64,000 bases of DNA from an uncultured Bacteroidales bacterium. Its GTDB lineage: Bacteria > Bacteroidota > Bacteroidia > Bacteroidales > PUMT01. How positions within the stretch are numbered: the stretch's first letter is position 1; each line of letters opens with the position of its first letter. The stretch spans positions 2,774 to 66,773 of the forward strand of contig CAYQXY010000008.1 in assembly GCA_964421595.1 (NCBI GenBank). Reading direction: 5' to 3'. Made by a program: the position numbers and the translations under genes. This document shows positions 4,801-63,546 of this stretch, one piece after another. Under the pieces are notes generated by a model that was given only the letters and a program-made list of their open reading frames with translations, did not search any database and was not told where the DNA came from.

Positions 4801-4983
4801 GTTGGGTATACTCTTCCGAGAAGCTGGGCCCAGAGAGTGTCAATGCAGAACTTGAGACTTTATGCCACAGCAACAGATGTATATACATTTAACCATTATC
4901 CCGATGGATGGGATCCGGAAGTATCTGCCACCGGTTATCCAATTACTACATCTATAATTTTCGGAGTATCTGTGAATTTCTAA
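1849..4983 (+). CDS. susC: SusC/RagA-family TonB-dependent outer-membrane transporter
   Basis: 1044-aa ORF. It has a CarboxypepD_reg-like segment (VTGRVTE..GLPLPGVTIMIRGTSTGTVTDIEGLYKL), a plug (DEIVAIGYGTARKSDITGSV; IRIRGITTIGDSSPLIIVDGVP) and a terminal aromatic residue (..SVNF). It is followed directly by susD. The signal-peptide-like start MKLLLCF at 1915 is a likely alternative start. Confidence 0.93.
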   Translation: MKKKPNPEIFFFKWKRRKIPLTMKLLLCFILFSVLNVSGSTDEVLNKFIQENTVTGRVTESGTGLPLPGVTIMIRGTSTGTVTDIEGLYKLSNVTPENVLVFSYVGMRTQEVNIGSLTEINIELENEALLLDEIVAIGYGTARKSDITGSVTSVSGNQVTERRTNQLSQALQGSMAGVTVTRNNNAPGASSTIRIRGITTIGDSSPLIIVDGVPVDNINWVNPSDVESISVLKDAASASIYGSRAAAGVILITTKRARTGQLSLEFTTEYGFETPTAMPEYVDVTRYMQMKNELRWNDNGNDANEFPRFPSDLVNNYMSLNAENPDRYPNTDWVDLVLNDNAPRQSHNLRVSAGTEAIRSTFSLAYDKTDGLYMDRTYERLSTRFNNNVVINNFISANLDLHYRRSISQQPSVNPIYSMLVAAPIYAAEWSDGRVAGGKDGNNIYGQIKYGGSQSNWWNQVGGKLSIDLTPMEGLQFSAVVAPNINFDKAKNHQLKVPYTPWDDPTRVQGTLQWANSTDLYENRNDNHQITTQFLANYSKDIQGHTINLLGGYENYYAFYESLGASRQQYELTSFPYLNLGPLTYRGNSGSAYENAYRSWFGRAMYNYMNRYFLQANLRYDASSRFHEDYRWGAFPSLSAGWVLTEETFMQNIPVLSYLKMRASWGTLGNERIGNYPYQATIGFSNALFHQGSNVVAAQSAAQWQYAIHNITWETTETIGFGLDLAFFENKLSLIADYYQKTTSDMLLALEIPNYIGYDNPDQNTGNMYTKGWELEAIYNNRVGEFNYSVGFNISDYKTRMGDLGGTEFIGAQIVREGSEFQEWYGYRSDGLFQSQEDVLNSPVTSGSVKPGDIKYRDISGPDESADGIISGAYDRVLLGGSLPRYLYGANLRLGYKGFDFGLVIQGVGKQNNRLSGLMVEPIPENWGHIPKILDGTYWSVYNTDQQNLAAQYPRLSRVSMGNNYAMSDFWLINGAYLRLKNISVGYTLPRSWAQRVSMQNLRLYATATDVYTFNHYPDGWDPEVSATGYPITTSIIFGVSVNF

Positions 4984-4994
4984 AATATTATATT

Positions 4995-14874: not shown

Positions 14875-17184
14875 ATGAAACTTTTTCAACTTTTTTTATT
14901 TGTGCTTTTCTTAACTGGTTGCAACAGACTGGAAGATAAAAATAATTCTTTCTGGAAACTTTGGTATGATAAGCCTGCATCTGAATGGACTGAAGCGCTG
15001 CCATTGGGAAACGGACGCATTGGTGCTATGGTTTTCGGCGGAACTGAAAAAGAACAAATACAGTTTAACGAGGAAACCCTGTGGACAGGTGAACCCCACA
15101 ACTATGCCAATGAAGGTGCATGGCAATATCTCGAACAAATCCGCAATCTCCTGAACCAGTGTAAGCAGCAGGAGGCTACTAATCTGGCGATGGAAAACTT
15201 TATGAGTATCCCGTTGAGACAAAAAGCCTACCAGCCCTTTGGCGACTTGTTGATAACCTTTCCTGGTCATAAGGGAGCTACCGGTTACTATCGTGAGTTG
15301 AATCTCTCTACGGCAAAAGTTAATGTTTCATATTTACTGGACGGTGTTAAGTTCAAACGTTCCTATTTTGTAAGTCAGCCTGACCAGGTTTTAGTTGCCG
15401 GTTTTTCGGCCGACAAAAAGAGCTCCCTTTCTTTTAATGTTGCACTTACTGCCGAACATAAGAATTATCAGACAGAAATTATAAACGGGAATGAACTTTC
15501 CCTGACTGTAAAGGTTGAAAACGGGGCCATGGAAGGTTATGCCTTGTTGAAAATTATTCAGGAGGACGGTGAAATTTCAGTGGAAAACAATAAAATTATA
15601 GTTAAAAATGCAACAAGTGCCCTGCTCACCCTTACTGCTGCCACCAATTTTGAAAACCCAAAAGAGTTAACTGCCGATCCACATCAAAAATGCCGTGAAA
15701 TAATAGATTTGATAAATTCAACTGACAGATATAATGAATTTGAAAAAAGGCACCTTGCCGAATACCAATCTTATTTCAACCGGTTTGATCTAAGCTTCGG
15801 TGGTGCAGAGAACGACACGATACCAACGGACCGGAGAATTATAAATAAGCTGAAAACATCCGATCCGCACCTGGCAGCACTTTATGTCCAGTTTGGCCGC
15901 TACCTTCTGATTGCCAGTAGCCGTCCAAACACATACCCCGCCAACCTCCAGGGCATATGGAATAAGGACCTTTCACCCTCATGGGACAGCAAATATACGG
16001 TGAACATCAACACACAAATGAATTACTGGCCTGCAGAGGTTCTTAATCTTCCTGAATTACATGATCCGCTGTTCACACTGATCGATGAAGTTGCTGCTTC
16101 GGGTGAGATTACCGCAAAAGAGCATTACAATTTACCCGGATGGGTATTGCATCACAACACTGATCAGTGGCGCGGTACAGCTCCCATAAATCACGCCAAC
16201 CATGGGATCTGGCCTACAGGTGGTGCCTGGCTGTGCCATCATATCTGGGAACATTACCTATATAACCTTGATACAGATTTTTTATTTGAAAAATATCCTG
16301 TCCTTCGAGATGCTGCCCTTTTCTTCAGAGATTTCCTTATTCTTGATGAAGAAACCGGATGGTTTATTAGTTCACCATCCAATTCACCCGAAACCGGTGG
16401 GTTAGTAGCTGGACCTACCATGGATCATTCTATTATCCGAAGCTTGTTTGAAATTGTGGTAAAAGCTTCTGAAATTTTACAGACAGACAAGGAGTTTGCC
16501 GGGCAATTGAATGAAATGATCCCACAGATTGCACCCTACCAGATAGGGAAATACGGACAATTACAGGAATGGTTGGAGGATAAAGACGATCCGCAAAACA
16601 AACACCGGCATGTTTCTCATTTGTGGGCGGTTCATCCCGGCAACGAGATTAATTGGAAAGAAACACCTGAATTGATGGAAGCCGCCAGGCAATCGCTGAT
16701 TTTTCGCGGCGATGAAGGTACAGGATGGAGCCTCGCGTGGAAGATTAACTTCTGGGCTAGGTTTAAAGACGGAAATCACGCATGGACAATGGTCAATACA
16801 TTGCTGCAGCCGGCCGAATATCCCGGGCGGGATATCCGAGGCGGTTCCTATCCTAACCTTTTCGATGCCCATCCGCCGTTTCAGATCGACGGAAATTTTG
16901 GTGGGGCAGCCGGTATAATGGAAATGTTGATGCACAGTCATCTGGACGGGATTGAGCTTCTACCGGCATTGCCTGATGAGCTTTCTTTGGGATGGGTGAA
17001 AGGAGTGCGGGCACGTGGTGGCTTTGAGCTTGAATTTTCCTGGGAAAACGGTGAACTTTTGCATGTAAATGTATTGTCACTGGCCGGCGAACCTTTGAAA
17101 ATCGTAAATGGAAATAACCTTTTGGAAATGAATACCCGGGAAGGACAACGACTGAAATTTGACGGGATGCTGCAACAGTTATAG
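14875..17184 (+). CDS. GH95 glycoside hydrolase (alpha-L-fucosidase / alpha-L-galactosidase type)
   Basis: It carries the GH95 N-terminal hallmark (WYDKPASEWTEALPLGNGRIGAMVFGG..EETLWTGEP). It is 769 aa with a lipoprotein-like start (FLTGCN). Confidence 0.88.
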   Translation: MKLFQLFLFVLFLTGCNRLEDKNNSFWKLWYDKPASEWTEALPLGNGRIGAMVFGGTEKEQIQFNEETLWTGEPHNYANEGAWQYLEQIRNLLNQCKQQEATNLAMENFMSIPLRQKAYQPFGDLLITFPGHKGATGYYRELNLSTAKVNVSYLLDGVKFKRSYFVSQPDQVLVAGFSADKKSSLSFNVALTAEHKNYQTEIINGNELSLTVKVENGAMEGYALLKIIQEDGEISVENNKIIVKNATSALLTLTAATNFENPKELTADPHQKCREIIDLINSTDRYNEFEKRHLAEYQSYFNRFDLSFGGAENDTIPTDRRIINKLKTSDPHLAALYVQFGRYLLIASSRPNTYPANLQGIWNKDLSPSWDSKYTVNINTQMNYWPAEVLNLPELHDPLFTLIDEVAASGEITAKEHYNLPGWVLHHNTDQWRGTAPINHANHGIWPTGGAWLCHHIWEHYLYNLDTDFLFEKYPVLRDAALFFRDFLILDEETGWFISSPSNSPETGGLVAGPTMDHSIIRSLFEIVVKASEILQTDKEFAGQLNEMIPQIAPYQIGKYGQLQEWLEDKDDPQNKHRHVSHLWAVHPGNEINWKETPELMEAARQSLIFRGDEGTGWSLAWKINFWARFKDGNHAWTMVNTLLQPAEYPGRDIRGGSYPNLFDAHPPFQIDGNFGGAAGIMEMLMHSHLDGIELLPALPDELSLGWVKGVRARGGFELEFSWENGELLHVNVLSLAGEPLKIVNGNNLLEMNTREGQRLKFDGMLQQL

Positions 17185-33489: not shown

Positions 33490-35124
33490 ATGAAGCCACT
33501 TGTTCTTGCCTCGTTAACCCTTGCAACAGTTCAGATATCCGGATGCGGCAGTCAGCAGACAGAAGAATACAAACGTCCCAATATCCTTTTTGCCATTAGC
33601 GACGATCAGTCATTCGGGCATACCAGCTTTTCCGGGAGTAATTTTATCAATACTCCTGCATTTGACCGTGTGGCTGGTGAAGGGATATATTTTGCAAACG
33701 CCTTTGCCGGCTCGCCAGGGTGCGCCCCTTCCCGTAGCGCTTTAGTTACAGGCCGCTATCACTGGCAAAATGAACATTCAGGACAGCATGCATCTTCCTG
33801 GATGAAGAAACATGTACCATTTGTAGATCTGCTCAACACAAACGGATATGTTACAGGTCGTACGGGGAAAGGGGTTTCCCCTTTCCGTTATGCACGTGAT
33901 GAGAATGATTCATTATGGCGTGAAACAGATGCCGGCGGAATTGCACACAGTAATATACGATATGAGCCCGGGACGCCAGGTGATGAAAGAACAGCTGACC
34001 TGATCAGCCTGGTGAATTATTTTGAAAACTTCAAATATTTCATGGAAAATGTGAGGGACGATAAACCGTTTTTCTTTTGGTATGGCGCCAGTGAACCGCA
34101 CCGTAATTATGAACAGGATTCCTGGAAACGAACTGATAAGAAACTGCCAGATGTCGATCTTCCCGGGTTTTTTCCTGACCATGAAATTGTAAGGGGAGAT
34201 ATGCTTGATTATGCAGTGGAGATTGAATGGTTTGATATGCATTTGGAACGGATGCTGAATTACCTGGAAGAAATCGGAGAACTTGACAATACTGTAGTAA
34301 TTGTTACCTCCGATAATGGAATGCCATTTCCACGGGCTAAAGCCAACTGTTATGAATATGGTATTCATGTACCTCTTGCCATCAGGTTTCCAAATGAGTT
34401 TCCCGGTGGAAGAGTCGTAGAAGATCTGGTAAGTTTTTCAGATTTTGCACCAACTTTTCTGGAATTAACCCAAACCAGTCCGGAGGGAATGTTGCCGGTT
34501 TCCGGGAAGAGTTTTTTACACATCCTGCGATCAAAAAAGCAGGGAATAGTTGATGAATCCAAAGAATATGTTTTTGCAGGCCGGGAGCGCCATTCCTCTT
34601 CAAGATATCTCAACTGGGGCTATCCGCAACGGGCAATCCGCAGCAGGGACCATCTTCTGATCTGGAATATGAAGCCCGAACGCTGGCCTGCGGGAGCACC
34701 ACAGCGAATAAAACCAGATACAAAAGATGAGCTTTTTCCCATGTACGGGATCGATGAAAATGGAGTACACCATTCAGAGTGGGCATTTACCGACATAGAT
34801 GCAGCACCCACAAAATCCTATATTATTGAAAATATGGAGGATGAGGCCGTAAGGTCCTATTTTGACTGGACACATGCCAAACGCCCTGAATTTGAGCTTT
34901 TTGACATAAATAACGATCCCTACAACCTTACCAACCTTTCAGGAAATCCGGCTTACGCTCAAGTGGAGAAGGAGTTGAAAGATGCTTTGCTTCAGGAACT
35001 CACAAATTCCGGCGATCCGCGTGTAGTCGGACCCGACAAGGAAATATTTGATTCTTACATCCGTTACAGTCCGATACGTGAATTTCCGGAACCGGACCGG
35101 AGCAACTTTCCCGAGAAGAACTGA
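33490..35124 (+). CDS. S1 sulfatase (Cys-type), a lipoprotein
   Basis: Lipobox ISGCGS. RPNILFAISDDQSFGHTSF and SPGCAPSRSALVTGRY. Confidence 0.9.
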   Translation: MKPLVLASLTLATVQISGCGSQQTEEYKRPNILFAISDDQSFGHTSFSGSNFINTPAFDRVAGEGIYFANAFAGSPGCAPSRSALVTGRYHWQNEHSGQHASSWMKKHVPFVDLLNTNGYVTGRTGKGVSPFRYARDENDSLWRETDAGGIAHSNIRYEPGTPGDERTADLISLVNYFENFKYFMENVRDDKPFFFWYGASEPHRNYEQDSWKRTDKKLPDVDLPGFFPDHEIVRGDMLDYAVEIEWFDMHLERMLNYLEEIGELDNTVVIVTSDNGMPFPRAKANCYEYGIHVPLAIRFPNEFPGGRVVEDLVSFSDFAPTFLELTQTSPEGMLPVSGKSFLHILRSKKQGIVDESKEYVFAGRERHSSSRYLNWGYPQRAIRSRDHLLIWNMKPERWPAGAPQRIKPDTKDELFPMYGIDENGVHHSEWAFTDIDAAPTKSYIIENMEDEAVRSYFDWTHAKRPEFELFDINNDPYNLTNLSGNPAYAQVEKELKDALLQELTNSGDPRVVGPDKEIFDSYIRYSPIREFPEPDRSNFPEKN

Positions 35125-35163
35125 CGCGATTCAACGGGTCATATTATCAACCATGTAAGGTCA

Positions 35164-36693
35164 TCATAATTGAATGATGTCATCAAGCAGTCCTCTTGTT
35201 TCAGTCAAAATTTCAGGATTGTCGGATGCAATATTGATCGTTTCTCCCGGATCACTATTCAGATCATATAGCTGTTCCTCAGCTTTAAACCCGGTTTCAA
35301 TCCCGGTACCCCAGGGAACAAGTTCAGGGCCATCATGGGCAGAAATATATTTATAACCATCATTCCTGACATATGTGAGAACATTCTGAATTGCTTCCTG
35401 AACCAATCCATCACGCCCATTCAAATCTTTCCCAATCAGGGCATCCCAGTGGTCCCTGCTGTCCTTTGCATCTATAGAATTGAATTCCTGTCCGGTAAAA
35501 GCGGCAAATGAAGCCAGCATGTCCACCTGGCTGAACAAGGCAGGGGAAACACTTCCCTTCTCAACCCTGCCTGGCCATTTGACGATCATAGGTACCCGGG
35601 TCCCTGCTTCAAAAGCGCTGTACTTTCCTCCCCTGAGCTCTCCCCATGGCTCATGATCACCTATCTTCTCAACGGCATAATCCACATACCCGTCATCCAG
35701 TACCGGTCCGTTATCAGAAGAGAAGATAACCATAGTATTTCCGGCCAGTCCCCGCTCTTCCAATGCCTCCATTAATGCACCCACCTGCCAGTCAAGCTGC
35801 ACAATCATATCTCCTCGTGGTCCGTAAGGTGTAATACCTTGAAAACGCTCATGAACGATTCGCGGAACATGGATATCAACAGGAGAATAATAAACAAAGA
35901 ACGGATCTCCTTTAGTTTCATCAATAAAATTTATTGCTTTTTCGATGAGCACATCAGCAATATCTTCATCTCTCCACAAAGCAGACTCACCGCCCTGCAT
36001 ATAGCCAATACGACTTATACCGTTGGTAATGGTATGGTTGTGGCCATGTGACCACATCATCTTCAGTAATTCAGGGTTATCCCTGCCTGTTGGGCGATCA
36101 CTGATATTTTCCTGAAAACTAACCTTTATTGGATCGTCCGCATCCAGGTTTGCAACAACATGGTTATCAATATAAACCGTCGGCACCCGGTCATTGGTAG
36201 CCGGTATAAGCCAGGAGTAATCAAAGCCTATCTCTAGTGGGCCTGGTGTTATCTTGCCGTTCCAGTCGGGTCCGTCATCGCCTCCAAGGCCGAGATGCCA
36301 TTTTCCTATGACAGAAGTACGGTATCCGGCACGCTGCATAACAGATGGCCATGTTTCTTTCCCTGGAAGAACAAGTGCCGGAGCATCTCCTCTGGCCACA
36401 CCTGTCCCCGGCTGACGCCAGGCATATTCTCCTGTCAGCAAGGAGAATCTGGATGGTGTACAGGTAGCTGCAGTGGTATATGCATTGGTGAACATAATCC
36501 CGTCCCGGGCCAGTTGATCTATATTGGGAGTTGGAACTTTCCCTCCGTAAATACCAATATCACCATAGCCTATATCATCGGAGTAAATCACAATGACATT
36601 AGGCCTGTCTTCTGATGCGTCATTCCTTGCACTCTGCTGCGCACATGAACTCACGAGCCCTGCAGTAATCAGTGGATATAAAAAAACCTTCAT
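35164..36693 (-). CDS. S1 sulfatase (Cys-type)
   Basis: RPNVIVIYSDDIGYGDIGIYGG and AATCTPSRFSLLTGEY. Lipobox-like VSSCAQ. Confidence 0.9.
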   Translation of the reverse strand: MKVFLYPLITAGLVSSCAQQSARNDASEDRPNVIVIYSDDIGYGDIGIYGGKVPTPNIDQLARDGIMFTNAYTTAATCTPSRFSLLTGEYAWRQPGTGVARGDAPALVLPGKETWPSVMQRAGYRTSVIGKWHLGLGGDDGPDWNGKITPGPLEIGFDYSWLIPATNDRVPTVYIDNHVVANLDADDPIKVSFQENISDRPTGRDNPELLKMMWSHGHNHTITNGISRIGYMQGGESALWRDEDIADVLIEKAINFIDETKGDPFFVYYSPVDIHVPRIVHERFQGITPYGPRGDMIVQLDWQVGALMEALEERGLAGNTMVIFSSDNGPVLDDGYVDYAVEKIGDHEPWGELRGGKYSAFEAGTRVPMIVKWPGRVEKGSVSPALFSQVDMLASFAAFTGQEFNSIDAKDSRDHWDALIGKDLNGRDGLVQEAIQNVLTYVRNDGYKYISAHDGPELVPWGTGIETGFKAEEQLYDLNSDPGETINIASDNPEILTETRGLLDDIIQL

Positions 36694-55406: not shown

Positions 55407-55757
55407 CTATTTAAATTTATTATAGTCGTATTGAAAGATTATGATCTTCGAGACGACAGGATATAAATAGGTGTCTATGGCAAATTCGATAATGAGTTTT
55501 TTGTGAATTACATGTGGGCACATAAAAATTACACCTTTGGCAGGTTCCCACTCAGCGACGACGCGATTTTTATTGAAGTGATAAAAATCAGATGGTTTAG
55601 ATGTGTCAACAGTATCCTTTTTGATACCAGAGGAGAATAAAAATAAAACTGCGAAAAAAGCGGTAGCTATAAATGGTAATATATTTTTAACAACAACCGG
55701 ATAACCGGTTAGTTTACTGCAGGTAAAACTTCTTAGTATGGCTGATTTTACTTTCAC
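55407..55757 (-). pseudogene. Possible N-terminal stub of an agmatine-deiminase / PAD-family protein
   Basis: VVAEWEPAKGVIFMCPH resembles the conserved (M)PAEWEPH..WP H start of that family. The ORF is only 116 aa and ends 2 nt before the listed dcp ORF (55404), or 8 nt before the preferred ATG at 55398. Confidence 0.3.
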
Positions 55758-55899
55758 ATCAAAGGTGCATTATCCTGATAAAGTGAGAATGCATTTCCTT
55801 GTATCAAATAGCCAGATTATTCAGCCTTATAAAATTAAATCTTAATTAGATTAATTAAAAAAAATATAATTAAAAATTTGTTATTAATTGTTGTAGTTG

Positions 55900-56090
55900 T
55901 TTAGGAGACAAACAGATTTGTAAACAGTGTTGATAAATGCTGATTATGAGTTAATTTTGCGAGATAATTTCCATACGACCTGATGTTTGAGCAAAAAGAG
56001 TCGTTACAGATAATGAGGTGACGAAGAAAGAAATGAAAGTGTTTTAATCGGATTATAGCTTTATGGGTAAACTTTCGTTCTGTCATTACC
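55900..56090 (-). pseudogene. Degenerate copy of the shared promoter / signal-peptide / N-module, with the start codon lost
   Basis: 55990-56085 (gcaaaaagagtcgttacagataatgaggtgacgaagaaagaaatgaaagtgttttaatcgg..ctttatgggtaaac) aligns with 59036-59115 (gcgaaaaaagttgttacagataaaaagaggatgaagaaaagagatgtaggtgttttcatagg..atttatgggcaaac). CAT has become AAT at the start codon. Confidence 0.6.
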
Positions 56091-56209
56091 TAATAAATAT
56101 CCATTGCGAATAGTTCGTCAAATAAGACCTAACTTTCTTACCAGATTTTTTTCTAATGGCAGTTCTTACAGACAGAAATATTAACTTATGGTTTTTAATC
56201 TAAGAATAG

Positions 56210-57076
56210 TCAAAATGTTTCAGATACCAACATTTTCTTATTCGCAAAAAAATATTTATTGTCTGCAATAATTATAACAATCGCTGCCATCATAAACACT
56301 AACATGATTATGAGATATCCATACTGGGTGTATAATACCGGGAATATCCAGAAAAACAAATTCATTTGTGTATGCAGAACCAGCGCTGCCAGGATACTTC
56401 CGTTTGTTTTGTAAAGTATCCAGGTATACATAAAATTGGCGGACATCACTGTCAGAATAAAAGACCAGACAGGGGTTACATAAAACATACCTGTAAGATC
56501 TTTTGGAACCAGAAATTGTGGCCAGTGCCAGATTGCCCAAAAGAATCCAAGAATTATGGAAGAATAAAATGGAGAGAATTTATTCAGTAATCGGGGAAGG
56601 GCATAGCCTCTCCAGCCAAATTCTTCCTGAAAAGGTCCCGAAGTAAACATTACAGCGAAAAAAATAAACGGAATAAAATAATACATTCCGGCTGCTTCAG
56701 ATGTCGGTCTGTCTTGATCAAAAAGTATACTTATGTAATAAGAAAATATGATTAATAATGGAAATACCAGAAATATAAAAAGCCACCATTTAGCTTCAAA
56801 ATCTTTATCCAATCCTCTTTTAAATAGTTTTTTGAGCCCTGACTTTCCTGACTCTTTCAATGTAAGAATTATTGCAGCTACCAGGGGTCCCAATGAACCA
56901 ATGACCCCGAGGCTGGTAAAGAATGATGAAGGCAGGGTGCCCCTTTTTGCAAGTGCATCAGGAATCCAGAATGCCCATGTAAATAAAAAAGAAATTAAGA
57001 AGAACAGAATTAAGTTACTGGAAATGCCTGACACTTTCATTGAATTACTTTTGTTATTATTGATAGCAGATCTCAC
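56210..57076 (-). CDS. CPBP-family (CAAX/Abi) intramembrane glutamic endopeptidase
   Basis: It is polytopic, with motifs FQEEFGWRGYALPRL and FWAIWHWPQF. It starts 12 nt after the upstream serine hydrolase stop. An alternative start, MKVSGISS, is at 57040. Confidence 0.8.
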   Translation of the reverse strand: MRSAINNNKSNSMKVSGISSNLILFFLISFLFTWAFWIPDALAKRGTLPSSFFTSLGVIGSLGPLVAAIILTLKESGKSGLKKLFKRGLDKDFEAKWWLFIFLVFPLLIIFSYYISILFDQDRPTSEAAGMYYFIPFIFFAVMFTSGPFQEEFGWRGYALPRLLNKFSPFYSSIILGFFWAIWHWPQFLVPKDLTGMFYVTPVWSFILTVMSANFMYTWILYKTNGSILAALVLHTQMNLFFWIFPVLYTQYGYLIIMLVFMMAAIVIIIADNKYFFANKKMLVSETF

Positions 57077-57088
57077 TTCTCGATCAGT

Positions 57089-59092
57089 TCAAAAACGAGC
57101 TCTCAAAAACAGCACATCCCGGGTGCGGCCGCTGGAGGCGTTGAAACCGGTAATTTCTCCGTTTTCATTTCGTAAAAAGTTAACCGAAGTTAGAGGAAAT
57201 TCTGATCCGAACGTATCTTCAGAGGTAGCACTGAGTTCCAGGTCGTCATCCATCTGGTAGTTCTCTATGTACAGGCTGCCTTCTTTCAACACAACAGTGT
57301 AAAGGGTTTCAATCTCCTCGCTGTAATAGCGTCCGGCATACTCTTCCATCTTTTCCGGTTCTAACATAAACTCAATCTTCCTTGCGATGTGGTTTCCGTT
57401 TTGATGGAGGGTGAGAGAATCTGCTGTGGCATCATCGTTCAAATGAAAGGTGACAGAAGCAGGCACTCCGACGATGCTGAAGGTGGAGTCGGATGTTGCA
57501 GACAGATCTACTTCCGGCTGATTTGTTGCCTGTGTGTAGATACGGTCTCCGTCGCGGGAAAAAGTAAGGATAAATCCGGGCATAGCATCCATCTCATACC
57601 GGCCGGTCAGCAGGTCAAAATTTGCAGATTCATATACAAACTCTTCCCCGGTAAGGGATATTTCTTCTTCCTGCTCTTCAGGCTCCTCTCCGTTTTCCAG
57701 GTACTCCTCTAAAAAGAGATCTGCAAGCTGGTTTGTGATACCAAAGATGTAAGAGGCATTATTGCTCTGTGTTACCACGGCAGCATTAATACCGGGGAAC
57801 ATCATCAACATTGATCGATGCGCCATATCTGCACCACCGTGATGATAATACGATATTCCCTTATATTCCTGAATATACAACCCAAGTCCGTACTCCGTAA
57901 ATGACCCGTCATTTAATTCAAAAGGTGTTGTCATCTCGTCAATCATGGAGGCAGTTCCAACAGTCGGGTTATTCATATTTTTGATCCATTTGGCCAGATC
58001 ACCCATTGTTGAGTGGATGCCACCTGCACCGGCCGCTCCGCCGAGGTCGGTCACCTCTCTATACCCACCCTCGTTATCAGGTGCATATCCTGCCGACCGG
58101 TTTTTTACGATCTGATTCGGGCTGGTGCGTACTACGGTGTTATGCATTTCCAAAGGCCCAAACACATTCTGTTTCATCCACTCCGGAAAAGGTGTACCGG
58201 TAACCCGGTTGATCACTTCGGTTATAAGGGCAAAGCCTGTGTTGTTGTAATTAAATTCACTACCGGGAACATTCTGTAGTTCGGGCTGACGCTGAACAAT
58301 TTTAATAATCTTTTCTATGTCAAGGTCAGTGCTCACATTACGGCCGCTCATTGCAACCAGATTGATGAACTCGCGGTATCCGCTGGTATGGTTCACCAAA
58401 TGCCTGAGTGTAACGGTGTGGTCAAATTCCGGAAGTTCGGGGATGTATTCACGTATATCATCATCTAGAGAGAGTTTGCCTTCTTCCTGCAGCAGCAATA
58501 GTCCAAATGTAAGAAACTGTTTAGAGGTAGAGCCGATGTTGTGAACGGTGTTTTCATCCATAGGAATACCATGGGTGAGATTGCTCATACCATAATTTTT
58601 AAGGAAATGTATCTCACCTTCTTTAATTACCATCACTGCCGCACCGGGAACGTCTTCTCCGGTATAATGCAGCATCAACTGATCTGTGCGTCCGGCCGGA
58701 TCAGCGGCCAGCGGTTCAGCAATGGAAACAAGGATAGTATAATCACCCTCTTCCTCTTCAAAAGGGGATACCTCAATTCGGTACACTCCACCAGATTTGG
58801 TTACAAACTGAAAGGATTCCTTTCCCCGGGCAGGTCCATCAAACTCTCCGGTTTTGACGCCTTCCGGGTCAAAAACAGTTACTACCACATCGACAGATTC
58901 CTGGTTGACAAACCCATAAACGATATGATCTGGCTCAAGCTCTATATTATAGGCATGAACACTTCCGGAAGTGAGCGATTTCTGAATGCTATAACCAACA
59001 GTTATAACTGTTTCTGTGCGGTCTGATGTCTGGGCGAAAAAAGTTGTTACAGATAAAAAGAGGATGAAGAAAAGAGATGTAGGTGTTTTCAT
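57089..59092 (-). CDS. Secreted beta-lactamase-fold serine hydrolase with an N-terminal beta-sandwich module and a C-terminal domain
   Basis: SxxK occurs in IGSTSKQFLTFGLL. Signal peptide MKTPTSLFFILFLSVTTFFAQ. The N-module is HAYNIELEPDHIVYGFVNQESVDVVVTVFDPEG..YRIEVSPFEEEEGDYTILV. Confidence 0.8.
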   Translation of the reverse strand: MKTPTSLFFILFLSVTTFFAQTSDRTETVITVGYSIQKSLTSGSVHAYNIELEPDHIVYGFVNQESVDVVVTVFDPEGVKTGEFDGPARGKESFQFVTKSGGVYRIEVSPFEEEEGDYTILVSIAEPLAADPAGRTDQLMLHYTGEDVPGAAVMVIKEGEIHFLKNYGMSNLTHGIPMDENTVHNIGSTSKQFLTFGLLLLQEEGKLSLDDDIREYIPELPEFDHTVTLRHLVNHTSGYREFINLVAMSGRNVSTDLDIEKIIKIVQRQPELQNVPGSEFNYNNTGFALITEVINRVTGTPFPEWMKQNVFGPLEMHNTVVRTSPNQIVKNRSAGYAPDNEGGYREVTDLGGAAGAGGIHSTMGDLAKWIKNMNNPTVGTASMIDEMTTPFELNDGSFTEYGLGLYIQEYKGISYYHHGGADMAHRSMLMMFPGINAAVVTQSNNASYIFGITNQLADLFLEEYLENGEEPEEQEEEISLTGEEFVYESANFDLLTGRYEMDAMPGFILTFSRDGDRIYTQATNQPEVDLSATSDSTFSIVGVPASVTFHLNDDATADSLTLHQNGNHIARKIEFMLEPEKMEEYAGRYYSEEIETLYTVVLKEGSLYIENYQMDDDLELSATSEDTFGSEFPLTSVNFLRNENGEITGFNASSGRTRDVLFLRARF

Positions 59093-59099
59093 AGGTTGA

Positions 59100-59107
59100 C
59101 AAATTTA
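59100..59107 (-). promoter_or_regulatory. TAAATTTG box 7 nt upstream of the ATG (shared cassette promoter)
   Basis: The minus strand reads CCCATAAATTTGTCAACCTATGAAAAC. Confidence 0.45.
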
Positions 59108-59249
59108 TGGGCAAACATTCTGCATAAACTATTGAACAATCACAAATGAATAACCCGTGTTATCGGTAATTTTTCAAAACATAGAATTTAATGAACAAAC
59201 ATTGAATAACCTTTATTCGATAATTTTATGTCTTAACAAATATTCTTTA

Positions 59250-60317
59250 CTAAAGGTATCCATAAAATTGATTATGATAATCTTTTTTCTTCCACATTTT
59301 GCTATTAAACACAAAAAACAGCATTAAAATAATTGCAAGAACAGTCATTACAACAGGAGAGTAACTGATAAATCCACTACTAAAATTTATCGATGTGTGT
59401 AAAATTATGAGTGTAAGAATTGAATATTCCGATCTATTATAAAACCAGGTAAAAAGTATCGTAACAGGTATAGCCTGGATGAATCTTGGCAGTAAGTCAA
59501 TAAATCCACCTGTTGAATAAAGCCCATTATAATGCAAAGGCAAATGCCAAAGAGCCCAAAAAAAAGCAATAACAAGTGATGTAAAAAGTGGATTGGTTAA
59601 CTTTTGCAATTCTTTTTGCATGAATCCACGCCAACCAAATTCTTCATTTCCTCCGGTAAAGAAAAAAGTAGTAAAAAAAGGAATGACTACAAAATAAAAA
59701 GGAAAGTTAATACCTGTAGCTTCACTCTTTTCGATGTTAATCAAATCAGCCACAAAATAACTTGTAATAAAAAGCAAAGGAAAAAGCAAAAGAGCAAATA
59801 TATACCAACCTATATAATCAGGTTTAAATTTAAGTGTTTTGAAAAAGTTTTCTCTGATATGGCTATCACTCACTTTGCTAAATCCCAATGCGGGAATCAA
59901 TGCTAAAAGCAGATATAAAGCCCATCCTACCCAGGTGATGTCTTTGAAAGCAGGCATCAGTCCTTTTAAATAGGGTATATATTCTATGTAATAATTACCT
60001 GCTTCCTTTGATGAAAGTAAAATTCTGAAAAAAAGTACCGTAAATGCGAAAATCAAAATGGAATAGAATACCGGTTTACTCCCTATTTTGATTCGGGCCT
60101 CTGATTGAATTGCCAATACTATAAACGCGGAAATCATTGGACCGAACATCCCCAAAAGTATCAGAAAGAAAACTATTTCAGTTGAAAACGATGTAATTAC
60201 AGGTAAAAACCAACTTATATAGCTAATAGCATAAGTCAGAATCAGATAACTTATAATTGAATACTTTTGGACAAAAATTTTCATAGCGTAAATAGCATAT
60301 AGGTTAATCTTTGGCAA
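59250..60317 (-). CDS. CPBP-family (CAAX/Abi) intramembrane glutamic endopeptidase
   Basis: It is polytopic, with motifs GNEEFGWRGFMQKEL and FWALWHLPLH. The likely start, MKIFVQKY, is at 60284. Confidence 0.8.
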   Translation of the reverse strand: MPKINLYAIYAMKIFVQKYSIISYLILTYAISYISWFLPVITSFSTEIVFFLILLGMFGPMISAFIVLAIQSEARIKIGSKPVFYSILIFAFTVLFFRILLSSKEAGNYYIEYIPYLKGLMPAFKDITWVGWALYLLLALIPALGFSKVSDSHIRENFFKTLKFKPDYIGWYIFALLLFPLLFITSYFVADLINIEKSEATGINFPFYFVVIPFFTTFFFTGGNEEFGWRGFMQKELQKLTNPLFTSLVIAFFWALWHLPLHYNGLYSTGGFIDLLPRFIQAIPVTILFTWFYNRSEYSILTLIILHTSINFSSGFISYSPVVMTVLAIILMLFFVFNSKMWKKKDYHNQFYGYL

Positions 60318-60475
60318 CCTAACTCGGGTAAACTCTTATATTATGTTGTCAATCAGTGAAAACTCCATCGTTCCGATTTTGCATGAGAATATGGTACCCC
60401 TTCGAGTGTGATTGCGAGATATTCATATGAAATTATCAATCTATCACGCCTTGTGATCAAATGCGAACACATTGC

Positions 60476-62074
60476 TCACCGGTTATCAGAAAGGTTGGTA
60501 CGGATCCGTTCCCTTACCTCCTCTAACAGCGCGATCATGTCTGCGACCGTTGTGTCTGGTTGGTTATTGTAAACCCCGAGCGGATTCCCTTGCTGTCGAT
60601 CCGGAAGGCGGTCGGTGATCGTGAAGATCAGATCCAGAAGGGCAGGCGGGACATTATTGTAGCCTGATGGTCTATGCCCTGTAACCTGTTGCGCAATCTC
60701 AGCGGCTGCACATCGCAGGCTGTATTGATCGGCCCCTGTGGGACATGGTCCTGGCACGTCCGTCGGATTCCAAGTACCAGGCTTGGAGAGCAGCTCGATC
60801 GTGTTGTTGATAATTCGCAGATCCTGCTCACTATATATCAGACCGGGCTGACCGCAGTCATCGCCGCAATCGACGGATGCTACCGACTCGCCCGCCACAA
60901 CCGCCGCTACCCAGTCGCGAAGCGGGTGGCCGTTAGTATGATAGTGGTAAAAGGTTTCACGGGTTAAAACCGTATGCTGATAGCCACCCGCTGTGAAGGA
61001 ACGGAACTCCGGCACCTGTTCGAGAATGGACTGTCTGTTGGCACGTAAATGGTGACTAACATCAGTGAGCTCGGCATTAGCCAGCTCCAGGTAAAAGCGT
61101 TGGGCTTCGTCGTGAGCATGATCAAACTGGTAGAGACCCAGGTTGGGAACGCTTCGTGCGGCATGGATATATAGCTTCTCAATTCCCGCGTTATCTTCGA
61201 ACTCCTCCCACCCCCGGTGACGACGCATGACGTCGGGAATACCCCACTGTCCGACGTCGGAGCCGGTCATCGCCTCGCTCCCATAGCTGCCGGAATCATC
61301 TCCGAGACCGGCTACACGAGCCTCCGGATAATGCTGCGCCAGCAAGCTGGCGTAGAAAGGTGTTCCTATGGAGCCCGCACTTGATCCGGCCACGAAAATC
61401 TCCTGTGGCGATTCGAAGTTGGCGTAGATCCAGTCCATGACGGCCATGGTATTTGTCTGACCGCGGTGGTGGATCTTGAATTGCCTGGTTTCGCCTGAAT
61501 CCGTCTTCAGGGTGTATGTCACATCGCGATCACCTAAGAAGGCGTCACCTGTGCATACCGGTACCGCAACGAATGAATATCCCGCCACCGGGTTGTCCGG
61601 ATGGTCCAGGTCGAAGATTCCGTTTTGCTCCGCGGGATGCATAGCCGGTTCGATCGTAGAAGTGTATGTATAGCTTTCCCGCTCTGGATCACAGGTCTCG
61701 GCATCCCAGCATCCGCCACCGCCGTAGAGATACACAACCAATCGGTTGCGATCGGCTGCCCGAACCCAGAAGTGAAAGTCGTCCCCGAGGGCACAGGTAG
61801 TCTCCCCGCTGGGGTACAGAGTATTCCAGCCGTCGTCTAGCCCGATGAGATCAGGAAGCGAATCACCCACCGCATCCATGGTTTCCTTATTGATAAGCCC
61901 ATATACGAAATGATCATGATCCAATTCAATATATGCATGATTACTCTGGGAAGCAAGTGTATTCTGAATGCGATCACCACATTCTATAACCCATTCCGAA
62001 CGGTCTGATGTCCGGGCGGTAAGAGTTATTACAGATAAAAAGAGGATTAAGAAAAGAGATGTAGTTGCTTTCAT
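60476..62074 (-). CDS. Chimeric secreted esterase: a native N-module (about 70 aa) fused to a high-GC pectin-acetylesterase (PAE/Notum)-like body
   Basis: LVVYLYGGGGCWDAETC resembles the PAE-family GGGxC block. The N-terminus MKATTSLFLILFLSVITLTARTSDRSEWVIECGDRIQNTLASQSNHAYIELDHDHFVYGLINKETMDAV is homologous to the 57089..59092 N-terminus. GC content jumps at about 61880. Confidence 0.7.
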   Translation of the reverse strand: MKATTSLFLILFLSVITLTARTSDRSEWVIECGDRIQNTLASQSNHAYIELDHDHFVYGLINKETMDAVGDSLPDLIGLDDGWNTLYPSGETTCALGDDFHFWVRAADRNRLVVYLYGGGGCWDAETCDPERESYTYTSTIEPAMHPAEQNGIFDLDHPDNPVAGYSFVAVPVCTGDAFLGDRDVTYTLKTDSGETRQFKIHHRGQTNTMAVMDWIYANFESPQEIFVAGSSAGSIGTPFYASLLAQHYPEARVAGLGDDSGSYGSEAMTGSDVGQWGIPDVMRRHRGWEEFEDNAGIEKLYIHAARSVPNLGLYQFDHAHDEAQRFYLELANAELTDVSHHLRANRQSILEQVPEFRSFTAGGYQHTVLTRETFYHYHTNGHPLRDWVAAVVAGESVASVDCGDDCGQPGLIYSEQDLRIINNTIELLSKPGTWNPTDVPGPCPTGADQYSLRCAAAEIAQQVTGHRPSGYNNVPPALLDLIFTITDRLPDRQQGNPLGVYNNQPDTTVADMIALLEEVRERIRTNLSDNR

Positions 62075-62081
62075 AGGATGA

Positions 62082-62089
62082 CAAATTTA
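62082..62089 (-). promoter_or_regulatory. TAAATTTG box 7 nt upstream of the ATG (shared cassette promoter)
   Basis: The minus strand reads AACATAAATTTGTCATCCTATGAAAGC. Confidence 0.45.
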
Positions 62090-62320
62090 TGTTTACACTT
62101 TGAATAATCTGTTTATACTTTTCCTAAACTGATCATTTTGCCTGTCCCTTATATATGGGTAAATTAGCAATTACTGCTAATCATAAATGCATTTAATCCT
62201 GAAACGATTGGGTCTGCATATTTTAACTAATCATTTACTATTACCAGTTTTTATGTTTAAATGGAGAATAGGCAATCAAGGCACTTTAAAATCAGTTTTA
62301 ATTCATATGAAGCACAAAAT

Positions 62321-63546
62321 TTAAAGATTCGTGACCGGTTTTGCTTCCGGCACCAGTATCCAGAAATCATAACTATTTATAAGCTCCCGAACAGGTTGTA
62401 TTGCCTGAGTTGGAAGCTTACGTAATGGTCTGAAATCAAGCAAAAACCAACCATCATCAGGAGAGTAACCAGCTACAGATTCCATAATTGCAGGGTGTAT
62501 AGATTCGGAGTTATCAAAAGACTGAGGTGGCCCCATGAAACCCTTAGCACTTCCCTTTATTCCGGTTATTCTGAAGCTTATAGCTTTCATTTCATTCATT
62601 TCGGCCAGTTCGAATGCCAGGTTACCAAGATCAAACTGGTTGTACATGGAGAGCCCACGCATGGTATGTGTTAGCCCAAAACGGAATACGACCCGGGGCA
62701 GCTCATCATCTTGTTTGGCTTGCCGGTAATATTTCATAAACTGCCGTTTAATAAGTCTTACCCGGGTATAGTTGTTTTCATAATGATTCCCTTGCATCCA
62801 CAATGAATATATTTGCTGACTTTCCTTTAAGCCATTAATAATTTTAACAGTTTCACGAGATGAGTCTGTTCCGAATGCACCATAAAGATTATGAAAGTCA
62901 TCATCTGTTAGTTGTACCATCATTAGATTTCCGGGATTGCCTGTTTCAGTAAATTTTACAAAAGCAGACTGAGCTTTTTCATAATATTCTTTTGCCATTT
63001 GCCTGGCATTGTCATCAGGTGCCATTTCCGATAGCTGACTAAAAAGTAACCGTGGAGTCCCAGAAAAACCTGATCAACACCCCACAATACTGGATTATGG
63101 GCGGTACTGAGACTTAAAGCAGTTTGTAACAGTTTCAAATCTTCCTTTGTGGAATAAAACGGGACACCTCCGGGGTAGGTTTTTATAAATTCAAGAATAG
63201 CTTCCTGTGATTTACGGATTGTACTTTCGAGTTCTTTTGCAACGAAAGGATCGGTTTCAATAGCTAAATAAGTATACTGGTATTGTATTGCCTCACGAAA
63301 TAAGGCATCAGTAAATAAAGCGGGCTCTGATATGCCATGCTGTTCACCAATAAGAAGAAATTGTGAACCGGGAATAATATCTTTTAAAACAGAGGCACCC
63401 CTACCTGCAAAAACACCATTTTCAACCTTGAATTGATATAGATTCTCTTCTATCGCTTTTACCAGAACACTATCATTGGTCTGGCCAAAAACTGGTATAT
63501 AGCTAAATAAAAGTATAGAAATAATATAAGAGAATCGTGTGATCAT
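62321..63546 (-). pseudogene. Frameshifted secreted protein (ChaN/Tiki/erythromycin-esterase-like by eye)
   Basis: ORFs 63546..62956 and 63025..62321 read as one protein if a 1-nt shift is made near the A5 run at 63064-63068 (..HNPVLWGVDQV | FSGTPRLLFSQLSEMAPDDNARQMAKEYY..). It has a signal peptide and a LLIGEQHG motif. Confidence 0.55.

Follow-up and report, generated by a model that had tools for sequence, protein, structure and literature searches.

The DNA analysed here, a stretch of 64,000 nt (the window), comes from an AT-rich host (GC 41%), probably Balneolales-like, that is marked as a member of the Bacteroidota, taken broadly, by the SusC/SusD pair, the GH95 and the sulfatases encoded in it. 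The genes of interest lie on the reverse strand and are, read in their own direction: a frameshifted copy of a gene for a 408-residue protein; a 532-codon gene in which a short N-terminal stub precedes a pectin acetylesterase (PAE)/Notum-like body; CPBP1, a membrane protease gene; BLA, the gene of a resident 667-residue serine hydrolase; and CPBP2, the conserved partner of BLA, followed by a degraded relic (Table 1).

Table 1. Features of the locus, with positions in the window
Feature	Position	Strand	Basis
Chimeric ORF, 532 aa: resident-type leader stub and foreign PAE/Notum-like body	60476..62074	-	ORF listing, AF2
Conserved 17 nt 5′ of the ATG (CATAAATTTGTCATCCT)	62075..62091	-	common to BLA upstream region
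Stub, codons 1-69: signal-peptide-like residues 1-20 and PPC-like beta-sandwich strands 1-4 of 9	61868..62074	-	identity to BLA N-module
Foreign block, codons 70-532 and stop codon	60476..61867	-	composition; homologue alignments from residue ~68-70 to C-terminus
PAE/Notum-like alpha/beta-hydrolase domain, residues ~80-410; GGGGCW (118-123), Ser232, AHD322EAQ325, His367	60845..61837	-	Pfam, profile, Foldseek
Helical C-terminal domain, residues ~411-532, weakly DUF6197-like	60479..60844	-	sub-cut-off Pfam; AF2 confident
3.2-kb segment absent from L089: AT-rich spacer, stub-PAE, CPBP1, second spacer	59123..62317	-	L089 alignment
Left flank of insertion: frameshifted copy of 408-aa gene	62321..63546	-	ORF listing; intact in L089
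CPBP1, Rce1-like/CPBP membrane protease gene, 355 aa, GC 0.32	59250..60317	-	Pfam, composition
BLA, 667-aa serine hydrolase: PPC-like sandwich, beta-lactamase/DAP-like domain, DUF3471	57089..59092	-	Pfam, AF2, Foldseek
CPBP2, conserved BLA partner gene	56210..57076	-	Pfam, synteny
Relic 3′ of CPBP2: degraded 3′ end of 408-aa gene, -7-like box, N-module codons 1 to ~32, ATG lost	55890..56140	-	alignment

The 532-codon gene changes composition within its own reading frame. Hand counts in the initial annotation had given 65 G+C per 100 nt at 61201-61300 and 30 per 100 at 59281-59380, and a recount returns exactly these figures. In 200-nt intervals, GC is 0.52-0.62 across 60500-61899 and 0.25-0.40 to either side; the most GC-rich 1400 nt of the 64 kb start at 60501 (GC 0.561), and the best 1400-nt interval outside 59000-63000 reaches 0.479. 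Compared with the 31 other long ORFs in the window (GC 0.423, sd 0.037; GC3 0.386, sd 0.050), the PAE body (GC 0.561, GC3 0.603) is an outlier, with z of ~3.7 for GC and ~4.3 for GC3; a profile resembling the background, named in the initial annotation as evidence against a foreign block, is not seen in the sliding-window and codon-usage analysis proposed there. All three codon positions are elevated (GC1/GC2/GC3 of 0.63/0.45/0.60 vs 0.51/0.38/0.39 in the background), and the stub has a GC of 0.39 and a GC3 of 0.33. One composition change-point, at 60473, adjoins the stop codon (60476); the other, at 61844, adjoins the point where homology to the BLA N-module stops, in agreement with the switch that had been placed at about 61880.

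Homology divides at the same place. DNA similarity to BLA extends from 17 nt 5′ of the ATG to codon 69 (window 61868), with 76-80% nucleotide identity between the stub and the 5′ end of BLA and 60% amino acid identity between residues 1-69 of the ORF and residues 1-70 of BLA (E 4e-20). The junction lies between codons 69 and 70 (61868/61867): residues 1-69 match the BLA family only and residues 70-532 the PAE family only, in one uninterrupted ORF. The stub groups with the N-modules of BLA from this genome and from its nearest relatives, and sampled BLA orthologues resemble it no more closely (the best, P0127, at 64% identity) than the resident BLA does. These observations support an in-frame fusion of a foreign body to a diverged copy of the resident leader, and they bear out the proposal that the N-terminal partner is a native module.

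BLA, the representative of the source family in the window, combines a PPC (PF04151)-like sandwich with a class-C beta-lactamase/D-aminopeptidase-like hydrolase domain and DUF3471 (“CubicO group peptidase”). Full-length orthologues are found in Balneolaceae, Cyclonatronaceae, Rhodohalobacter, Gracilimonas and other taxa; because this 667-residue architecture is so widely conserved, the N-module can be regarded as native to BLA. The spread was revealed by a search with full-length BLA, a word-index search with the 140-residue N-module, of low sensitivity, having returned only 3 proteins. PF04151 falls below cut-off on the BLA N-module (E 0.036), and some orthologues have a precomputed PF04151 match. 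In the AF2 model, the N-terminal domain of BLA has nine strands (residues 26-127, pLDDT ~85-93), of which the stub keeps only strands 1-4: it is cut after strand 4 and ends at the start of strand 5, so the breakpoint falls, as had been recognized from the sequence, inside a sandwich that remains intact in the paralogue.

The stub differs from its source in other respects as well. Its dN/dS against BLA is 0.72, vs 0.15-0.22 for BLA orthologues; its dS is 0.38 to the BLA genes of the window and of a close relative, L087, and 0.56 to that of a second relative, L089 (window-L089 BLA dS 0.51-0.64). The AF2 model of the 532-residue protein has a mean pLDDT of 85.8, with stub residues 18-69 below 50, a low value that may be owed in part to the shallow alignment there. 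The N-terminus consists of MK, a hydrophobic run at residues 4-18 that the model shows as a helix, and LTA|R; A20-Q21 hardly varies among BLA orthologues, but the stub carries R21 and has lost the +1 Gln, the residue that follows the predicted SPase I cleavage site (Ala-Gln) under the Q-rule of Bacteroidetes (PMC5837995).

The 17-nt segment upstream of the ATG is common to the BLA upstream regions of the window, L087 and L089. Within it lies TAAATTTG, which we take to fit the Bacteroidota -7 promoter consensus TAnnTTTG; this pattern occurs 47 times in 128 kb (both strands of the window). Scans with sigma-70 promoter and terminator models, which do not apply to Bacteroidota promoters, stayed at chance level. 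The conserved upstream box with its start codon, sought as an exact pattern, had no match in a metagenome collection that evidently lacks the sample of L087, and when metagenomes were scanned with residues 1-152 for junction-spanning relatives, none of the 209 pattern hits was confirmed. The initial annotation had seen here a catalytic body captured behind a resident promoter and signal-peptide cassette. The copied segment does include the conserved 17 nt, but the cassette is a diverged copy rather than the original, and BLA keeps its own.

What does the borrowed leader precede? Several lines of evidence support the PAE/Notum-like fold attributed earlier to the high-GC part and point to a serine esterase with Ser232 as the candidate nucleophile. 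Pfam PF03283 (PAE) matches residues 107-264 (E 3e-14, 53.2 bits vs a cut-off of 26.6), over profile positions 40-188 of 355 only. The AF2 model of the body has pLDDT mostly above 90, and its top 50 Foldseek matches in the PDB are all Notum (best E 6e-13, overall ~1e-12; target-normalised TM-score 0.55-0.63); a family profile matches Notum at E 3e-10, with GSSAG aligned to Notum LAGSSAGG. In enzymes of this type, the nucleophilic Ser sits in G-x-S-x-G (GCSxG in plants, GSSAG in Notum), the Asp in a motif of the NxAYDxxQ type and the catalytic His, in plants, in HCQ (PMC5465549). The sequence G230-S-S232-A-G234 is invariant in 43 homologues; No variation is seen at A320, D322 or H367, and next to none at Q325 (invariant in a 19-sequence set). 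AHD322EAQ325 agrees with the AYDxxQ pattern, although the sequence alignment to Notum ends upstream of D322 and H367.

With Notum (PF03283; CAZy CE13; human and fly NOTUM, PDB 4UYU/4UZA), the window protein shares the alpha/beta-hydrolase fold, the GGxxCW oxyanion-region motif and GSSAG; it also contains an A-[HY]-D-x-x-Q motif and a conserved His, as well as a predicted leader for export. Identity is only ~18%, however, and the window protein has an additional Cys-rich helical C-terminal domain of ~120 residues, in which PF19698 (DUF6197) scores below cut-off (E 0.002) and many homologues have a precomputed PF19698 match; Cys403, Cys407, Cys444 and Cys455 are conserved. Unlike Notum, it belongs to a bacterial subfamily without a characterised member: no characterised close relative of the body was found, and no NCBIfam model matches the protein. 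The enzyme would O-deacetylate or deacylate an extracytoplasmic substrate.

Members of this subfamily, annotated as “pectin acetylesterase-family hydrolase” with DUF6197, include Wenzhouxiangella sp. XN201 G4Y73_02965, Antarcticibacterium flavum FHG64_06625 and proteins from Gemmatimonadota and Mariniphaga MAGs. They are 59-72% identical to the window protein over residues ~68-532 and share its domain order and invariant residues. Their N-termini differ: the alignment of homologues begins at residue ~68-70, directly after their own short signal peptides, and several have an N-terminal SnoaL/DUF4440 domain instead, whereas a BLA-derived stub is seen in the window protein alone among the sampled members. 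Swapped N-terminal domains also occur in other members of the PAE family.

Table 2. GC of PAE genes and of their flanks
Source	Gene GC	Flank GC
Gemmatimonadota MAG (L003)	0.68	0.69
Longimicrobiales MAG (L006)	0.71	0.69
Metagenome contig (L085)	0.68	0.69
Mariniphaga MAG (L002)	0.58	0.45
Flavobacteriaceae MAG (L004)	0.56	0.45
Antarcticibacterium flavum (L082)	0.49	0.44

In Gemmatimonadota-type contigs the PAE gene has the GC content of its flanks, and in other AT-rich Bacteroidota it forms a GC island, as in the window (Table 2); a GC-island body with an AT-rich leader is also found in unrelated Bacteroidota contigs, e.g., in Mariniphaga. The most similar PAE sequences are GC-rich and native-looking, of the Gemmatimonadota type, most matches being without taxonomy. 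The search for a donor of residues ~70-532, which the initial annotation had suggested, did find these high-GC relatives; the closest homologues are 70-72% identical, and with none of those sampled above 72%, the donor would be an unsampled lineage. A neighbor-joining tree (distance only) places the window protein with flavobacterial-type copies (78% bootstrap), apart from the most similar high-GC sequences; no close plasmid homologue was found. Since the body is an outlier in composition, its high-GC homologues match their own flanks and the segment is absent from L089, horizontal acquisition from another bacterial lineage is supported, and we infer its direction and route. A nearest homologue from Bacteroidota with similar GC had been thought to speak against a foreign origin. 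The Mariniphaga gene is such a match, but because it, too, stands out as a GC island from a contig of 45% GC, it refines the story of the transfer rather than refuting it.

When did the body arrive? In L089, a metagenome contig, the 408-aa gene adjoins BLA directly: L089 4736-6175 corresponds to window 63755-62318 and L089 6193-9198 to window 59122-56134. L087, a closer relative from another sample, has PAE at the same place (90% nucleotide identity; BLA 93-95%). Its contig starts at PAE codon ~120, with ~150 nt left to the 5′ junction, and covers the 3′ side only, where the PAE body is contiguous with a remnant of CPBP1, most of which is deleted, and BLA. The ancestral order is recorded in the relic 3′ of CPBP2 (local alignment score 66 vs a shuffle maximum of 33), in which the end of the 408-aa gene leads into the N-module with nothing between, an arrangement common to the window and L089; the N-module cassette is present in three copies at the locus (BLA, the PAE stub and the decayed relic). 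Acquisition after the split of the L089 lineage and before the window/L087 split is supported, with the insertion polarised by the relic and by composition rather than by a true outgroup. The description of the body as recently acquired holds in this relative sense only: it is absent in L089 and present in L087, and it is under purifying selection (PAE dN/dS of 0.16 between the window and L087). The polarised changes in PAE comprise 45 GC→AT and 3 AT→GC, a count that the GC-rich outgroups bias toward GC→AT.

The inserted segment is not flanked by a mobile-element signature, and no flanking inverted or direct repeats besides the N-module copies were found; a possible direct repeat of ~15 nt, taken from the intergenic sequence and lying at either end of the insertion, does not stand out against shuffled sequence. 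CPBP1 and a 215-nt AT-rich spacer also lie inside the segment and are not accounted for by the transfer of PAE. Co-transfer of PAE and CPBP1 is unsupported, with no CPBP1-like neighbour of PAE homologues among the fetched loci, and at only 32% identity between CPBP1 and CPBP2, the stub-PAE/CPBP1 pair is ruled out as a recent tandem duplicate of BLA/CPBP2.

How might these pieces have come together? Most likely, a foreign PAE body was fused, in frame and in the lineage of the window, to a copied BLA 5′ end. From an ancestral order of 408-aa gene, BLA and CPBP2, the 3.2-kb segment would have been placed between the 408-aa gene and BLA; its core would be the stretch that encodes the mature protein, from codon ~70 to the stop, of a PAE/Notum-like serine esterase that came ultimately from a high-GC lineage, possibly via another Bacteroidota genome. 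Illegitimate recombination at codons 68-70, with microhomology of at most 2-4 nt, would have fused this body to a BLA copy reaching from ~17-20 nt 5′ of the ATG, including the -7-type box, to codon 69. Because it carries everything from the box through codon 69, the copy would provide the start signals for transcription and translation as well as a host-type Sec signal peptide, and the donor's own leader would have been replaced by a host-type one. Use of the promoter and export of the product are presumed, as is assembly of the chimera in situ rather than its import. The 49 residues of the broken sandwich would be unable to fold and would persist as a near-neutral, disordered N-terminal tail, while the body would be held by purifying selection as its synonymous sites drift toward the AT-rich composition of the host.

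The chimera could, however, have been made in another, related genome whose BLA was similar, perhaps already next to CPBP1, and the whole 3.2-kb unit imported through homology in the 408-aa gene or BLA. The stub is just 76% (nucleotide) and 61% (amino acid) identical to the resident N-module and up to 64% to that of an orthologue; the inserted segment is a mosaic of AT-rich spacer, GC-rich body and very AT-rich CPBP1; and dS values between the window and L087 are higher for PAE (0.33) and BLA (0.21) than for CPBP2 and M3 (0.10-0.11), a possible sign of recombination. Yet the high dN/dS of the stub accounts for its amino acid divergence with no need for a distant source, its dS of 0.38 to BLA of the window and L087 is lower than that between the BLA genes of the window and L089 and fits a copy made within the lineage, and the sampled genomes include no such donor; we consider import unlikely, if worth keeping in mind. 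An old acquisition, with stub-PAE-CPBP1 ancestral and lost from L089, is a rather improbable reading. The two N-modules are direct repeats ~3 kb apart, recombination between which would yield exactly the L089 arrangement, and deletions do happen at this locus, as in L087; against this, the relic common to the window and L089 keeps the adjacency of the 408-aa gene and the N-module without PAE or CPBP1, the L089 spacer resembles, in its proximal part, the upstream region of BLA and not that of PAE, and the GC3 of PAE, at 0.60, is still far from the 0.39 of the host, with substitutions strongly GC→AT.

An assembly chimera, in which a high-GC contig of another organism was misjoined into the MAG contig, is brought to mind by the metagenomic source, by the abrupt switch in GC and by the break of L087 ~150 nt before the 5′ junction. 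Both joins would then have to yield one in-frame ORF that ends at the normal C-terminus of the family; moreover, the independent L087 contig links the PAE body to the CPBP1 remnant and BLA, the 10% divergence from it under purifying selection implies evolution within the lineage, and the pattern of a GC island behind an AT-rich leader recurs in unrelated Bacteroidota contigs. The identical 532-residue protein is also recorded on two contigs, not known to be independent. All this makes a misjoin highly improbable. The same low odds apply to a native gene whose GC reflects the amino acid composition of the family or selection. Because GC1 and GC2 are high in all PAE+DUF6197 members, including the ameliorated copy of A. 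flavum (0.59/0.43), part of the GC excess is indeed protein-driven; GC3 is nonetheless 0.60 in the window PAE vs 0.45 in the A. flavum orthologue and 0.39 in the background, L089 lacks the gene at the syntenic site, and the leader of the window PAE was demonstrably taken from another gene. The view that the body is foreign and was fused to a BLA copy in the window's lineage is the one we follow below.

Mosaic genes and the replacement of leaders after transfer are known in bacteria, and the locus is a clear but ordinary case of a transferred gene gaining expression and export in a new host, not a new kind of system. HGT-chimeras, which unite horizontally acquired and resident sequence in one gene, have been described in arthropods (PMC13389597). 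They share with the window ORF a foreign coding fragment in frame with host sequence for expression and targeting; unlike them, the window case is one of transfer from bacterium to bacterium, its host piece includes a decaying, broken half-domain, and an insertion-free relative and a fossil duplicate document the states before and after. Intermediates that are normally inferred are thus captured at one locus (L089 without the insertion, L087 with it and the fossil duplicate of the ancestral order), which makes it a good case, for teaching or for comparison, of how a horizontally transferred gene captures a leader. Beyond this, it draws attention to a subfamily of bacterial Notum/PAE-like esterases with a DUF6197-type tail that is uncharacterised and is spreading between phyla. 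One may speculate, with considerable doubt, that box, signal peptide and half-domain form a re-usable cassette for expression and export, and that leader replacement is recurrent, possibly obligatory, when PAE moves out of high-GC phyla into AT-rich Bacteroidota; were this general, the PAE family would be a natural system in which to study the host-compatibility of transferred secreted enzymes. Within the single gene, a borrowed leader is decaying (dN/dS ~0.7) next to a catalytic body that is conserved (0.16) and still drifting toward the composition of its host.

The gene that stands out in base composition joins a short leader (the stub, codons 1-69) to a pectin acetylesterase (PAE)-like body (residues 70-532). 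The initial annotation read it as a high-GC foreign block fused in frame to a native N-terminal module; a transferred esterase body on a resident-type leader is indeed supported, with the refinement that the leader is a diverged copy. The G+C counts made by hand (65 of 100 nt at 61201-61300, 30 at 59281-59380) prove exact on recount. In 200-nt windows, GC is 0.52-0.62 across 60500-61899 and 0.25-0.40 on either side, with 0.413 for the whole window; the most GC-rich 1.4-kb stretch of the 64 kb (0.561) begins at 60501, and outside 59000-63000 the maximum is 0.479. The composition change-points, 60473 and 61844, lie at the stop codon (60476) and the homology junction. The 31 other long ORFs have a mean GC of 0.423 (sd 0.037) and GC3 of 0.386 (sd 0.050), and the PAE body is elevated at all three codon positions (GC1/GC2/GC3 0.63/0.45/0.60 vs 0.51/0.38/0.39). 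Part of this excess comes from the amino-acid composition of the family, because the ameliorated Antarcticibacterium flavum orthologue keeps GC1/GC2 near those of the PAE body (0.59/0.43), with a GC3 of just 0.45; the third-position excess does not.

Where does the leader come from? The neighbouring gene, BLA (57089..59092, minus strand), encodes a 667-aa serine hydrolase with a β-lactamase/D-aminopeptidase-like domain and DUF3471; full-length orthologues (52-88% identity, ~100% coverage) occur in Balneolaceae, Cyclonatronaceae, Rhodohalobacter, Gracilimonas, Fodinibius, and some Flavobacteriaceae. Judged by these taxa, the host of the window is probably Balneolales-like. In the AF2 model, BLA residues 26-127 form a nine-strand all-β domain (pLDDT ~85-93), the N-module; a PPC-domain match is precomputed on some orthologues, and BLA itself matches PPC weakly (E 0.036). 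Stub residues 1-69 are 60% identical to BLA residues 1-70 (E 4e-20), and the DNA is 76-80% similar from 17 nt upstream of the ATG (CATAAATTTGTCA[T/A]CCTATG) to codon 69 (61868). From codon 70 to the C-terminus, the product aligns with a family annotated "pectin acetylesterase-family hydrolase", in whose members the aligned part starts a few residues past their own signal peptides. The fusion is in frame and at the end of the N-module homology, as had been proposed, and the break does lie inside the predicted β-sandwich: the stub comprises a predicted signal peptide and strands 1-4, stopping at the start of strand 5. The junction codons (GCG GTG / GGT GAT) leave room for a few nucleotides of microhomology at most between BLA-type and PAE-type sequence. 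The conserved 17 nt contain TAAATTTG, which we take to fit the Bacteroidota -7 promoter consensus TAnnTTTG; this putative -7 box keeps a constant spacing to the ATG across the PAE copy, the BLA copy, and the BLA copies of two relatives.

Chimera residues 18-69, a segment with no alignment depth, are modelled with pLDDT < 50, and dN/dS between the stub and the resident N-module is 0.72, vs 0.15-0.22 among BLA orthologues, which fits a remnant freed from folded-domain constraint. The +1 Gln of the predicted cleavage site, the Bacteroidetes "Q-rule" residue (PMC5837995, PMC10653852), is lost in the stub (A-R vs A-Q in nearly all BLA orthologues). Over the predicted signal peptide (codons 1-21), stub and BLA show ~8 non-synonymous and no synonymous differences, an odd pattern on few sites; constraint on the nucleotide sequence itself around the start could be responsible, or gene conversion.

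Two relatives, found via the BLA protein, cover the same locus. L089 (JGI sample 3300074328; BLA 88% identical in aa) lacks any counterpart of the segment made up of spacer, stub-PAE, and CPBP1, a gene for an Rce1-like/CPBP membrane protease; its upstream 408-aa gene lies only 50 nt from BLA. L087 (JGI sample 3300076001; 94.6% identity over 8.2 kb of flank) carries the PAE body in the corresponding position (90-91% nt, 90% aa identity), on a contig that begins at PAE codon ~120, leaving the 5' junction outside. Which arrangement is older? A relic 3' of CPBP2, the protease gene partnering BLA, is present in both the window and L089: in the former, the -7 box and the first ~32 N-module codons survive with the ATG lost; in the latter, what survives is ~85 nt of the 408-aa gene, from its 3' end. 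Combined, they read [3' end of 408-aa gene][-7 box][N-module codons 1 to ~32], which indicates that the [408'-BLA-CPBP] unit was duplicated in tandem at an earlier time and that the relic is its fossil. Because the relic preserves the 408-to-BLA adjacency with nothing between, it argues that the L089 order is ancestral and that 3.2 kb were inserted in the window/L087 lineage. In the window, the 408-aa gene is frameshifted into two overlapping ORFs (196 and 234 aa, neither with a Pfam or NCBIfam match), either a pseudogene or a MAG sequencing error.

Could the fusion be an artefact? A chimeric assembly is scarcely credible as its maker: a mis-join would need two breakpoints yielding one uninterrupted in-frame ORF with a family-normal C-terminus, in the independent contig L087 PAE runs on into resident genes on its 3' side, the identical 532-aa product is recorded on two contigs, and the PAE copy has diverged within the lineage; two metagenome scans for the 5' junction (61868) gave no match. 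The window is identical to contig JBHJNM010000028.1 of GCA_050330815.1. The chimera may have been imported ready-made from a related genome rather than assembled in situ, a serious alternative that we consider unlikely. Synonymous distances, on few sites, agree with insertion in the window/L087 lineage (stub-window BLA 0.38, stub-L089 BLA 0.56, window BLA-L089 BLA 0.51-0.64). A mobile-element signature at the insertion and a plasmid relative were looked for and not found.

Is the transferred body an enzyme? The PAE/Notum-like fold initially proposed is borne out by the Pfam PAE domain (PF03283, residues 107-264, above threshold), by predicted structure, and by profile comparison. The AF2 model of the chimera (43 homologues; mean pLDDT 85.8, pTM 0.84) has high confidence throughout residues 70-532; all 50 of the listed lowest-E Foldseek matches in the PDB are Wnt deacylase Notum (E ~1e-12, target-normalised TM ~0.6), and the family profile matches Notum with E 3e-10. 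In that alignment, GGWYCF and the nucleophile motif GSSAG of Notum align with GGGGCW and GSSAG of the PAE body. Ser232, Asp322 (within AHDEAQ; cf. AYDxxQ in the plant enzymes and Notum, PMC5465549), and His367 are invariant in 43 sequences. Together, these features make the PAE body a credible active serine esterase. DUF6197 falls below threshold at residues 421-522 but is precomputed on many homologues; NCBIfam yielded no model for this bacterial subfamily, and no characterised member was found. Between the window and L087, PAE has dN 0.053, dS 0.33, and dN/dS 0.16; by these substitutions, purifying selection maintains it as a functional gene. Its dS is threefold that of CPBP2 (0.11) and the M3 peptidase (0.10), with BLA at 0.21, a gradient that may reflect amelioration of a foreign gene, or local recombination. 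Changes polarised with four outgroups, whose GC richness inflates the asymmetry, number 45 GC to AT vs 3 AT to GC, a direction consistent with a gene still ameliorating toward the 41% GC of its genome.

Who was the donor? The best homologues, 70-72% identical over residues ~68-532, are metagenome proteins P0003 and P0004 (contigs of 68-69% GC) and those of Gemmatimonadota and Mariniphaga MAGs; none of the sampled sequences is close enough to name it. A Wenzhouxiangella homologue is 68% identical. The gene matches its surroundings in GC in L003, L006, and L085 and is a GC island in L002 and L004 (table); in L002 (Mariniphaga), the first ~43 codons are AT-rich (0.41), a leader/body contrast as in the window, and the A. 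flavum gene is nearly ameliorated. The Mariniphaga gene formally touches the objection that the closest homologues might be Bacteroidota genes of similar composition, but it looks foreign in its own contig and thus refines, rather than refutes, the transfer. In a neighbour-joining tree (455 columns, 200 bootstraps), the window groups with flavobacterial-type copies (78%), and Mariniphaga joins at 42%. A high-GC lineage is plausibly the ultimate source, and the direct donor could be a different member of the Bacteroidota. N-terminal remodelling is recurrent in the family.

Features of the locus and PAE genes in fetched loci (window positions unless a locus is named)
Feature	Position	Strand	Gene GC	Flank GC	GC3	Remark
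Chimeric ORF	60476..62074	-				encodes 532 aa
PAE body			0.561		0.603	
PAE, synonymous-divergence comparison	60476-61717; L087 3-1244					
Stub signal peptide	62012-62074	-				
BLA signal peptide	59030-59092	-				
Inserted segment	59123-62317					
408-aa gene	62321-63546	-				intact in L089 (4946-6172)
Two hydrolase-protease pairs	56210-60317	-				
Relic	~55890-56140	-				L089 9212-9297
116-aa ORF	55407-55757	-				
SusC/SusD, GH95, sulfatases	1849-6686, 14875-17184, 33490-36693					25-60 kb from PAE
Gemmatimonadota MAG	L003		0.68	0.69	0.82	
Longimicrobiales MAG	L006		0.71	0.69	0.87	
Metagenome contig	L085		0.68	0.69	0.83	
Mariniphaga MAG, body	L002 3664-5190		0.58	0.45	0.63	
Flavobacteriaceae MAG	L004 2-1243		0.56	0.45	0.61	
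A. flavum	L082		0.49	0.44	0.45	
P0012	L083 1445-3001					

The PAE catalytic family is already known, and leader replacement after transfer is a known phenomenon. Fusions of transferred and resident sequence have also been described, e.g., HGT-chimeras (PMC13389597). This locus is unusually well documented: one relative has the insertion, another does not, and a fossil records the ancestral order. It also draws attention to a subfamily of Notum/PAE-like esterases that is uncharacterised and mobile between phyla. Several homologues (P0005, P0019, P0022, P0025) carry an N-terminal SnoaL/DUF4440 domain, of which P0012 has just a fragment (INEAAVRAEVEEQH) after a Bacteroidota-type signal peptide; P0044, P0091, and P0120 are fused to esterase or metallo-β-lactamase domains.

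CPBP1, within the inserted segment, has the lowest GC in the window (0.32) and is 32% identical to CPBP2. In L087, a 755-bp deletion at 1436 (window 60284 to 59529) reduces it to a 103-aa remnant and leaves the upstream PAE intact, so PAE seems independent of CPBP1; in the fetched loci, no CPBP gene lies next to a PAE homologue. Several frameshifts interrupt BLA and the M3 peptidase in L087 as well. Twice in the window, the gene of a putatively secreted hydrolase precedes one for an Rce1-like/CPBP membrane protease (PAE+CPBP1, BLA+CPBP2); the second pair is kept in L087 and L089, and distant BLA orthologues (L090, L091) are without a CPBP neighbour. Between the relic and the M3 peptidase lies a 116-aa ORF that matches no family; its positional counterpart in L087 encodes 112 aa. 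Genes elsewhere in the window for a SusC/SusD pair, a fucosidase-type GH95 enzyme, and two sulfatases indicate a context of polysaccharide utilisation and mark the host as Bacteroidota in the broad sense.
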